From the IMG/VR virus record IMGVR_UViG_3300027797_000011: a stretch of DNA of 64,000 nucleotides. One strand, 5' to 3'. This DNA comes from a virus. Its lineage: Duplodnaviria > Heunggongvirae > Uroviricota > Caudoviricetes. This document shows, piece after piece, positions 47,032 to 47,290 of the stretch (within the stretch, counting starts at the first letter, position 1; the number at the start of each line of letters is the position of its first letter). Position numbers and translations under genes: made by a program. The notes under the pieces are model-generated. The model searched no databases, was not told where the DNA came from, and saw only the letters and a list, made by a program, of their open reading frames with translations.

Positions 47032-47057
47032 AAAAAAGGCCCGTAGGCCTTTTTTTT
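47032..47057. terminator. bidirectional rho-independent terminator
   Basis: A6-GGCCCGTAGGCC-T8. Confidence 0.75.
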
Positions 47058-47069
47058 CTGTGTGTATGA

Positions 47070-47144
47070 TTAACGGTTAGCAATATACATTGTGATTTCA
47101 AAACCGAAACGCATGTCGCTTGCTTGTGGTGTTGTCCATTTCAT
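47070..47144 (-). CDS. pqqA: PqqA-type peptide (PQQ precursor), 24 aa: [24 protein letters not shown]
   Basis: Strong RBS AAAGGAG 8 nt upstream. Matches PqqA consensus W-x-x-P-x-x-x-D-x-R-x-G-F-E-(V/I)-T-M-Y-x-x-x-R, with the conserved Glu-x3-Tyr cross-linking pair. Flanked by two terminators. Confidence 0.7.
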   Translation of the reverse strand: [24 protein letters not shown]

Positions 47145-47166
47145 AATAATTCTCCTTTTAAGTTAG

Positions 47167-47183
47167 CATACTACAGTAGTATG
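47167..47183. promoter_or_regulatory. perfect 17-bp palindrome (operator-like) in the pqqA leader
   Basis: CATACTAC-A-GTAGTATG, about 25 nt upstream of the pqqA ATG. Confidence 0.35.
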
Positions 47184-47262
47184 TATCCTTATGATACAGT
47201 AAAAATAGTCTAAATCATATAGTGAAAATCATTGTTTTGACTTAGTGTTACTACTTACAGTC

Positions 47263-47290
47263 AAAAAAAAAAGATCCGAAGATCTTTTTT
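47263..47290. terminator. bidirectional rho-independent terminator after the OMP gene
   Basis: A10-GATCCGAAGATC-T6. Confidence 0.75.

Follow-up and report, generated by a model that had tools for sequence, protein, structure and literature searches.

The 64,000-nucleotide stretch of tailed-phage DNA analysed here (hereafter, the window) carries on its minus strand a 24-codon ORF that, judged from two curated family models, is a genuine pqqA gene, i.e. a gene for the precursor peptide of pyrroloquinoline quinone (PQQ). Through this gene the phage probably supplies the PQQ precursor to the enzymes of its host, which would make pqqA an auxiliary metabolic gene. The same reading has been published before: Coutinho et al. 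(2020, Microbiome 8:163, PMC7678222) described PqqA from VP_266, a viral population of Lake Baikal with a predicted host among the Methylophilaceae. In VP_266, PqqA is accompanied by a methanol dehydrogenase and a peptide deformylase, and its proposed role was an auxiliary one, that of boosting the PQQ supply (PMC7678222); the view in a preliminary description of the window that such a gene was undescribed for phages is thus refuted. While phage pqqA as an auxiliary gene was already known, the jumbo-phage lineage, the wide and overlooked distribution of the gene (including six cultured phages), and the conserved architecture of the cassette in which it resides are what the present analysis adds. 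As far as full-text searches reach, no description of the breadth of phage pqqA was found.

The pqqA gene and its peptide

The following features were identified in and around the gene (coordinates are those of the window):

47032..47055, bidirectional: downstream intrinsic terminator, AAAAAAGGCC-CGTA-GGCCTTTTTT, a G+C-rich 10-pair stem between A- and T-runs
47070..47144, minus strand: pqqA, with an ATG start and 24 codons (24 amino acids, including Glu16 and Tyr20), from the ORF call and HMMs
47152..47157, minus strand: ribosome-binding site (RBS) AAGGAG, 7 nt ahead of the ATG
47167..47183, minus strand: 17-bp palindrome or stem-loop, CATACTACTGTAGTATG, perfect (8 + 1 + 8) and forming a hairpin in the fold
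47191..47196, minus strand: -10-like hexamer TATCAT, matching TATAAT at 5/6 positions and with no good -35, from the sequence and the aligned position in 38 related leaders
47220..47233, minus strand: degenerate palindromic box, AATGATTTTCACTA, followed by a second ATGAT element
about 47263..47290, bidirectional: upstream intrinsic terminator, AAAAAAGATC-TTCG-GATCTTTTTTTTTT (GATC, then a T-run), from the sequence and the fold

The pqqA-like ORF and the near-consensus RBS of the preliminary description, in which the strand was unstated, are both real. Membership of the PqqA family was also borne out by HMM searches, in which the 24-residue peptide scored 40.4 bits with PF08042 (Pfam; gathering threshold, 21.1; E = 2.7e-10) and 38.1 bits with TIGR02107 (NCBIfam, equivalog; cut-off, 20; E = 9.2e-10). 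The thresholds of both curated models are exceeded about twofold, so that the refuting outcome named in the preliminary description, an HMM search without a significant match, did not occur; the match spans Glu16-x3-Tyr20, the pair that is cross-linked in the maturation of PqqA. In the window peptide this pair is part of E16-I-T-M-Y20, i.e. the Glu-x-x-x-Tyr motif of the family, and its 24 residues fall in the range of about 20-40 residues typical of these ribosomally made peptides. No phage copy deviates at the Glu or the Tyr residue, an observation that is informative for the set found by tblastn and fixed by construction for the pattern-based sets; W3 and P6 (the N-terminal W-x-x-P), which the search pattern did not demand, are likewise invariant in 109 unique viral sequences. 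The usual location of pqqA, directly 5' of pqqBCDE, is not that of the window gene. Adjacency to pqqBCDE is not obligatory for PqqA, as solo copies also exist in bacteria.

No PHROGs family was found for the peptide, and the gene was missed by every gene caller in all contigs of the window phage. This oversight, together with a length of just 24 codons, is what could be said for a chance open frame within an intergenic spacer. Such an origin is refuted by the E-values of about 1e-10 with two curated models, the presence of an RBS, the conservation of the ORF over more than 200 loci, and the purifying selection described below, and we regard it as practically without probability.

Architecture of the pqqA cassette

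The gene had been described as standing alone between two bidirectional terminators, and indeed both hairpins were found, delimiting a self-contained transcription unit. The upstream hairpin is strong in both the minimum-energy and the centroid folds; the terminator at 47263-47290 really serves the preceding outer-membrane-protein gene and guards pqqA from read-through. The downstream terminator begins 14 nt past the pqqA stop codon. Taken as a unit, the cassette (47020-47300) forms a far more stable fold than shuffled sequences do (z = -5.4). Terminator-like hairpins are also present 3' of pqqA in 66 of 114 viral copies (58%) and 98 of 119 bacterial copies (82%).

Relatives of the window phage contain TATAAT at the same position as the TATCAT hexamer, and all of them contain an RBS of the AAGGAG/AAGGA type at the same position as that of the window. 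By consensus, the promoter of the window is weak, lacking a -35. A consensus promoter scan was silent on TATCAT because the scan requires a -35.

A perfect 17-bp palindrome in the leader, noted in the preliminary description, is present at 47167-47183 and is the sole perfect copy in the window; with up to three mismatches allowed, 3 matches were obtained against 0.25 expected, and none of 100 shuffles reached 3. A reading of it as a one-off operator does not hold up as well as one as a conserved 5' stem-loop of the mRNA, with varied stems at a fixed position. The stem-loop starts about 7-8 nt past the -10 box in the window (5-10 nt in the general design), which is the predicted 5' end of the mRNA. 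Leader stem-loops were tested against shuffles by an alignment-free procedure. A stem of at least 6 bp starting no more than 14 nt from the -10 box was detected in 33 of 37 window-type leaders (89%, vs 33% for dinucleotide shuffles), in 33 of 68 IMG/VR copies (vs 22% for shuffles), and in 18 of 55 bacterial copies (vs 17%). The mean z-scores of leader folding were -1.32 for viral leaders, -1.21 for bacterial leaders, and -0.26 for random segments.

At least four distinct stem sequences occupy this leader position in the relatives, the families being ACATAC...GTATGT, AATACATGT...ACATGTATT, GTTGCAAC...GTTGTGAC, and GAGAGCACC...GGTGCTCTT. Since the sequence varies while the pairing persists, an RNA role appears more likely for the leader palindrome than that of a DNA operator. 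Stem-loops at the 5' end shield mRNAs against 5'-end-dependent decay. The hairpin families cannot be aligned by sequence, MAFFT leaving them out of register and RNAalifold returning no pairs, and no Rfam family came near its gathering score in the leader.

Further upstream, bacterial pqqA genes possess a box with the consensus CT(C/A)ATGA-AAA-TCAT(G/T)AG, i.e. CT(C/A)ATGAAAATCAT(G/T)AG, a 17-bp palindrome that sits about 110-135 nt 5' of the pqqA ATG and often has a second CATGA element next to it. The box occurs 82 times in 852 kb of bacterial loci; 78 of these sites are no more than 200 nt 5' of a pqqA gene and the other 4 are also beside pqqA, and for this reason the box is best regarded as a pqqA-specific candidate operator. 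A position weight matrix (PWM) was built from bacterial sites and applied with a threshold of 6.95 bits (2% false-positive rate); matches were found upstream of pqqA in 50 of 117 viral copies and in 33 of 86 bacterial copies outside the training set. Scores of 13-16 bits were obtained for the cultured phages Melnitz and Venkman and the Manatee Spring phage. The window box scores 5.67 bits, under the threshold, and to judge from this score is a degenerate remnant.

AATGATTTTCACTA occurs as a single exact copy in the window, which indicates that the window box is part of the cassette and not of the general promoter set of the phage; a phage-wide promoter element was ruled out as its identity on the same ground. 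A Fur box, the consensus of which we take the box to resemble, was ruled out as well, because the operator of a global regulator is expected before many unrelated genes and the box is found only beside pqqA in the 852 kb of bacterial loci. Neither the box nor the leader stem-loop was found in Rfam or, as far as searches reached, in the literature, and the two elements can be considered candidate regulatory elements of betaproteobacterial pqqA.

The phage, its host, and the spread of pqqA among viruses

Almost all genes of the window are encoded on the minus strand. The phage setting assumed in the preliminary description is genuine: matches to PHROGs include virion structural and baseplate proteins, a clamp loader, and an endonuclease, and 18 tRNA genes are present in addition to a two-piece tmRNA, betaproteobacterial in type, whose tag is ANDEQFALAA. 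A peptide deformylase is encoded at 7244-7750. The clamp loader is nearest to that of the Pseudomonas jumbo phage PA5oct group (53.6%), followed by those of Atu_ph07 and SCTP-2. The relatives with 54-79% identity to window proteins are metagenome contigs of 367 and 374 kb, and by this comparison the window is about one-sixth of a jumbo phage genome (the relatives being of about 370 kb). A megablast search with 40000-55000 against the phage collection gave no match, and the exact sequence of the pqqA gene had no match in IMG/VR.

One protein of the window phage, encoded by a gene neighbouring pqqA, was found on at least 21 contigs, which come from several samples and belong to JGI, ENA, and Logan assemblies. 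The identity to the window is 99.5-100% in the six loci fetched, and the segment 46957-47339, which includes the cassette, is 100% identical in 6/6 independent assemblies. The cassette is therefore no assembly artefact, and in all six assemblies pqqA is flanked by viral genes on both sides in the same arrangement.

None of pqqB, pqqC, pqqD, and pqqE is present in the window, as the preliminary description had stated. The PqqB-E queries were the proteins of a bacterial operon filed under 'Acinetobacter phage MD-2021a'; the best tblastn match of these Acinetobacter proteins in the window (E = 0.039) is a generic radical-SAM motif. The only radical SAM ORF (61736-62824) was rejected as PqqE, scoring 15.6 bits with TIGR02109 (cut-off, 381.35) and finding its best matches in generic radical SAM families. 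This absence is direct for 64 kb of the genome of about 370 kb and indirect, at the population level, for the remainder. No PQQ-dependent dehydrogenase was found in the 64-kb window.

The tmRNA type points to a betaproteobacterial host, presumably living in fresh water. The peptide is nearest to PqqA of Rhodoferax, Albidiferax, and Polaromonas (21-22/24 residues), all of which are operon-linked, and shares 14-15/24 residues with the Methylophilaceae type. At the same locus in related phages, peptides grade toward the Methylophilaceae type (L106, L024, and a metagenome variant), so that phage alleles form a graded series from Methylophilaceae-like to Comamonadaceae-like and a host assignment based on the peptide is ambiguous. 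The G+C content of the window (39%) is uninformative on the host in the case of jumbo phages; that of PA5oct is also far under that of its host. The methylotroph proposed as host in the preliminary description is no more than a possibility, the peptide being closer to the Rhodoferax/Polaromonas type than to that of Methylophilaceae.

Residue 4 is T or S in window-type phage peptides and Q or E in the sampled bacterial peptides, and the window-type phage alleles form a group of their own apart from the sampled bacterial alleles. The substitution at residue 4, which sets window-type phages apart from the sampled bacterial operon copies, might be taken to mean that the peptide is a decoy that ties up host PqqD/PqqE unconverted and thereby stops PQQ synthesis. 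We consider this very improbable, as Glu16, Tyr20, and all other family-invariant residues are retained, many phages encode a peptide that also occurs, unchanged, in bacteria (e.g. MWTTPAATEMRFGFEVTMYVMNK), and no benefit to the phage is apparent.

A search of IMG/VR with the back-translated pattern M-R-F-G-F-E-[IV]-T-M-Y identified at least 120 contigs with pqqA. All 120 of the copies listed are intact (23-25 amino acids, with a start codon, an RBS, and a stop codon) and specify 49 distinct peptides. The peptide MWTTPAATEMRFGFEVTMYVMNK is identical in 22 viral loci (among the matches listed) and 35 bacterial loci. A metagenome scan for the window-type peptide yielded 119 loci, comprising 46 bacterial loci (mean G+C content, 57%; pqqB-E adjacent; peptide MKW(Q/E)TPAASD...) and 73 without any pqqB-E. 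Homologs of window proteins are carried by 31 of these 73 loci (mean G+C content, 40%). The other 42 are unclassified, with the same mean G+C content (40%) and mostly phage-type peptides (MKW(T/S)TP...); three of them, with the bacterial MKWQTP... peptide, may be short bacterial fragments.

By tblastn, intact pqqA genes with an RBS were also found in Melnitz (four isolates), Venkman, MEP301, MEP401/402, P19250A, and the Manatee Spring podovirus. According to the taxonomy of the records, Melnitz belongs to Kyanoviridae and MEP402 to Zobellviridae, its relative MEP401 being also matched, and Venkman, MEP301, P19250A, and the Manatee Spring podovirus are filed under Caudoviricetes only. Six cultured methylotroph phages thus carry an intact pqqA, which in their records is either left without annotation or overlapped by a 'hypothetical protein' on the wrong strand. 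In the Melnitz paper, PQQ is mentioned solely as a medium supplement, and pqqA is absent from the text. Two matches to 'Acinetobacter phage MD-2021a' were dropped as phage pqqA, as they represent bacterial chromosome with a full pqqABCDE operon.

No pqqB-E gene was found near pqqA in the cultured phages or in the at least 120 listed IMG/VR contigs; within the fetched flanks, PqqB-E were found in 0 of 120 IMG/VR pqqA loci among the matches listed, and none was found in the phage-like metagenome loci. Patterns of the most conserved PqqC and PqqE peptides, applied across IMG/VR and limited to what these patterns can retrieve, yielded no PqqE relative and a single PqqC relative, which lies on a MAG fragment of a giant virus. 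Among the bacterial pqqA copies fetched, 60 were solo and 38 were beside pqqB. The intact copies in Kyanoviridae, Zobellviridae, and phages filed under Caudoviricetes only show that pqqA recurs independently across phage lineages.

In 109 unique viral coding sequences (among the matches listed), pS was 0.476 and pN 0.158, giving a pN/pS of 0.33, which was calculated from the eleven codons unconstrained by the search pattern; replacements in the motif were barred by the pattern and provide no evidence there. Synonymous divergence inside the motif was 0.69, and the window gene differs from that of the locus L057 by five synonymous changes and one replacement. This is the pattern expected of a translated peptide under purifying selection and not of a non-coding remnant.

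The selection also bears on the notion that pqqA is a passenger, i.e. a fragment of host DNA kept with its promoter without benefit, or as homology for recombination or integration at the host pqqA. Several features fit this notion: the cassette retains host-type upstream elements; small-phage copies are located at module boundaries, on the strand opposite to their neighbours and near recombinases; and the position shifts among relatives, the cassette being between GT4 and GDSL in L106, 3' of GDSL in L099, and beside the tmRNA in others. Against it stand the full length of the gene with start codon, RBS, and stop codon in 120/120 viral loci among the matches listed, the purifying selection with saturated synonymous change, the occurrence in lytic-type T4-like and jumbo phages, and the separate phage allele group, a sign that the gene has long resided in phages and was not picked up recently. 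A passenger is, in our estimation, quite unlikely.

Tentatively, the cassette (operator, -10, 5' stem-loop, ORF, and terminator) might be a portable mini-gene still under the control of the host pqqA regulator, which as a unit has entered jumbo, T4-like, Zobellviridae, and small tailed phages, i.e. at least three and probably five lineages unrelated to one another, and may re-enter chromosomes; we regard this as possible and rather less than an even prospect. If it is true, phages would be the vectors of the pqqA expansions of Methylophilaceae (3-12 copies).

Role of pqqA in infection

Several known systems resemble that of the window. Like the window, VP_266 contains PqqA without pqqBCDE in a large, low-G+C freshwater phage that also encodes a peptide deformylase. 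VP_266, which was compared by its description, is T4-like, has a G+C content of 35%, encodes a methanol dehydrogenase, and is linked to Methylophilaceae, whereas the window has a G+C content of 39%, a PA5oct-type clamp loader, a peptide of the Rhodoferax/Polaromonas type, and no methanol dehydrogenase in 64 kb. Methylophilaceae themselves carry 3-12 copies of pqqA and a single pqqBCDE (Beck et al. 2014, PLoS One 9:e102458, PMC4109929). Their solo copies are, like that of the window, small independent units with an upstream box, a structured leader, and a terminator; they are chromosomal, whereas the window copy is viral, with a degenerate box and a leader hairpin of different sequence. The pqqA genes of Rhodoferax, Albidiferax, and Polaromonas (Comamonadaceae) share 21-22/24 residues with the window, including the C-terminal 15 residues, but precede pqqBCDE in DNA of 46-70% G+C and have Q or E at residue 4, where phage alleles have T or S. 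The cultured methylotroph phages also have a solo, intact PqqA of 23-24 amino acids with an RBS, and the boxes of Melnitz and Venkman score high; in contrast to the window, they encode peptides of the Methylophilaceae type (64-71% identity to that of the window) and represent other phage families. Most likely, the phage copies the bacterial habit of multiplying pqqA alone.

A parallel is provided by cyanophage psbA (D1), in which the phage brings only the component of the energy system of the host with the fastest consumption or turnover and the host supplies the remainder. The parallel is an analogy without homology, as psbA and pqqA differ in protein and pathway, and experiments have established what psbA does in infection.

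PqqA is the sole stoichiometric input of PQQ synthesis, one peptide being used per cofactor, and PqqB-F are catalysts (established; summarized in PMC12124388). In the mechanism that we propose, host RNA polymerase would transcribe the cassette during infection, and the product, a monocistronic mRNA about 145 nt long, would be stabilized by the hairpins at both ends. Translation would yield PqqA, in which host PqqD/PqqE would cross-link Glu16 to Tyr20, with PqqF, PqqB, and PqqC completing PQQ. The added precursor would sustain or raise PQQ synthesis as host gene expression falls, and periplasmic PQQ-dependent dehydrogenases and the energy supply would thereby be kept going for phage production. 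That the cassette is transcribed and translated during infection, that host enzymes process the peptide, and that the phage gains fitness are steps that we infer. The fit of the phage peptide to host PqqD/E is assumed, given the difference at residue 4 (T/S vs Q/E). PQQ is a stable, reusable cofactor, and for this reason the value of new PQQ synthesis within one infection cycle is not obvious; it would matter if there were periplasmic leakage or fresh apo-enzyme.

The PQQ made might alternatively serve ends other than energy supply, namely closing the importer PqqU against superinfection, acting as an antioxidant, or being secreted as a common good. PqqU, a TonB-dependent importer, is the receptor of some phages; in its PQQ-bound form it cannot bind phage IsaakIselin, and PQQ blocks that coliphage (PMC12124388). 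In addition, the phage types with pqqA are highly diverse, as would be expected if the benefit to phages were a general one. For the hosts considered here, however, the link to PqqU or a receptor is only conjectural. Phages with pqqA are concentrated among those that infect PQQ-dependent methylotrophs, and a lake phage population was reported to combine the gene with a methanol dehydrogenase (PMC7678222), both of which fit the metabolic reading better. We therefore view these other ends as unlikely.

The supply of precursor to host enzymes, as proposed in the preliminary description, remains the best available explanation, strengthened by the purifying selection and by the contrast between at least 120 contigs with pqqA and one PqqC and zero PqqE relatives. 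As befits an auxiliary metabolic gene, the phage gene is a homolog of a host gene kept by selection, with 21-22/24 identity, a pN/pS of 0.33, and presence on at least 120 viral contigs.

Periplasmic dehydrogenases of alcohols and sugars have PQQ as their cofactor; among them are the methanol dehydrogenases that power methylotrophy in lakes and oceans. Auxiliary-gene surveys undercount pqqA because the gene escapes both gene callers and phage family libraries. Cultured OM43 phage-host pairs allow direct functional tests, in which the 1 nM PQQ of the standard medium could mask a phenotype. A phage that brings only the precursor would point to PqqA as the input that limits the pathway in nature, and infection may sustain or raise the oxidation of methanol and other alcohols in infected cells.

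pqqA in phage and bacterial records

Six cultured phages (Melnitz, P19250A, MEP301, MEP402, Venkman and the Manatee Spring podovirus) carry an intact pqqA gene with a ribosome-binding site, yet it is unannotated in all six, and a pqqA match is also present in MEP401. A 'hypothetical protein' is annotated across pqqA, on the opposite strand, in both the Manatee Spring phage and Melnitz, and the Melnitz paper makes no mention of pqqA.

pqqA coordinates in the six phage records
L001, 6001-6072
L002, 2998-3069
L003, 2998-3069
L004, 621-692
L005, 2998-3069
L006, 2119-2190

Two records of the phage collection named 'Acinetobacter phage MD-2021a' (L007, i.e. 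CAKLQF020000010.1, and CAKLQH020000055.1) contain ppk, a full pqqABCDE operon and a dipeptidase gene, i.e. ordinary bacterial chromosome, and should be left out of the phage evidence.

Among the metagenome loci (L255-L373), residue 4 of PqqA is T or S in every phage allele of the window type, whereas operon-linked alleles of bacteria from the same sample types have Q or E there. The phage alleles grade between Methylophilaceae-like and Comamonadaceae-like peptides.

In the bacterial pqqA loci (L128-L247), a 17-bp palindrome, CT(C/A)ATGAAAATCAT(G/T)AG, is located ~110-135 nt 5' of pqqA. It is essentially restricted to this gene, 78 of its 82 occurrences in 852 kb of bacterial loci being upstream of pqqA, and the taxa in which it precedes pqqA are Methylophilaceae, Comamonadaceae and other Burkholderiales. 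Many phage pqqA copies have retained the palindrome, and the window contains a degenerate copy:
47220-47233, palindromic box

Genes flanking pqqA in the window

The window's pqqA is flanked by three genes whose order is kept in relatives, with 62-85% amino-acid identity, and which may constitute a cell-envelope modification module. A beta-barrel protein gene with its own promoter and terminator adjoins pqqA.

Genes and promoter around pqqA
46543-46956, minus, GDSL-like hydrolase
47339-47896, minus, outer-membrane beta-barrel protein with signal peptide (Pfam OMP_b-brl; weak Lom-family match in PHROGs)
47967..47938, perfect (12/12) sigma-70 promoter of the beta-barrel gene
47989-49005, minus, family-4 glycosyltransferase
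49027-49911, minus, LpxH-like metallophosphoesterase

L099 and L106, both syntenic relatives, lack the beta-barrel gene, which thus looks like a recently inserted moron.

Other genes, tmRNA and tRNAs

Several other protein-coding genes are present in the window.

Other protein-coding genes
4983-7247, minus, ClpA/ClpB-type AAA+ ATPase
7244-7750, minus, peptide deformylase
19772-20149, minus, Cpn10 (GroES)
28028-28852, minus, SufD-like Fe-S cluster assembly protein
28824-29591, minus, SufC-like Fe-S cluster assembly protein
35567-36157, minus, ClpP
52782-53411, plus, one of very few plus-strand genes
61736-62824, minus, radical SAM protein not assignable to a subfamily

The ATPase, peptide deformylase, Cpn10 and ClpP form a host-like protein-quality-control set; peptide deformylase has likewise been reported in the PqqA-encoding Lake Baikal viral population VP_266 (PMC7678222). 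The product of the plus-strand gene matches Pfam malonyl-CoA decarboxylase (MCD) in the identical contig L248. Because the radical SAM ORF as listed overlaps a tRNA-Leu gene (62726-62802), its true start probably lies further downstream.

RNA genes
50753-51139, minus, two-piece (permuted) tmRNA of betaproteobacterial type, tag ANDEQFALAA
52503-63889 (minus) and 40680-40753, 18 tRNA genes

In several related contigs (L073, L272, L312, L322, L343 and L352), pqqA lies directly 3' of the tmRNA gene and lacks a box or promoter of its own, suggesting that the two are co-transcribed there. Most of the 18 tRNA genes are tightly clustered at the window's end, and the set is consistent with a phage base composition (39% G+C) that may be far from that of the host.
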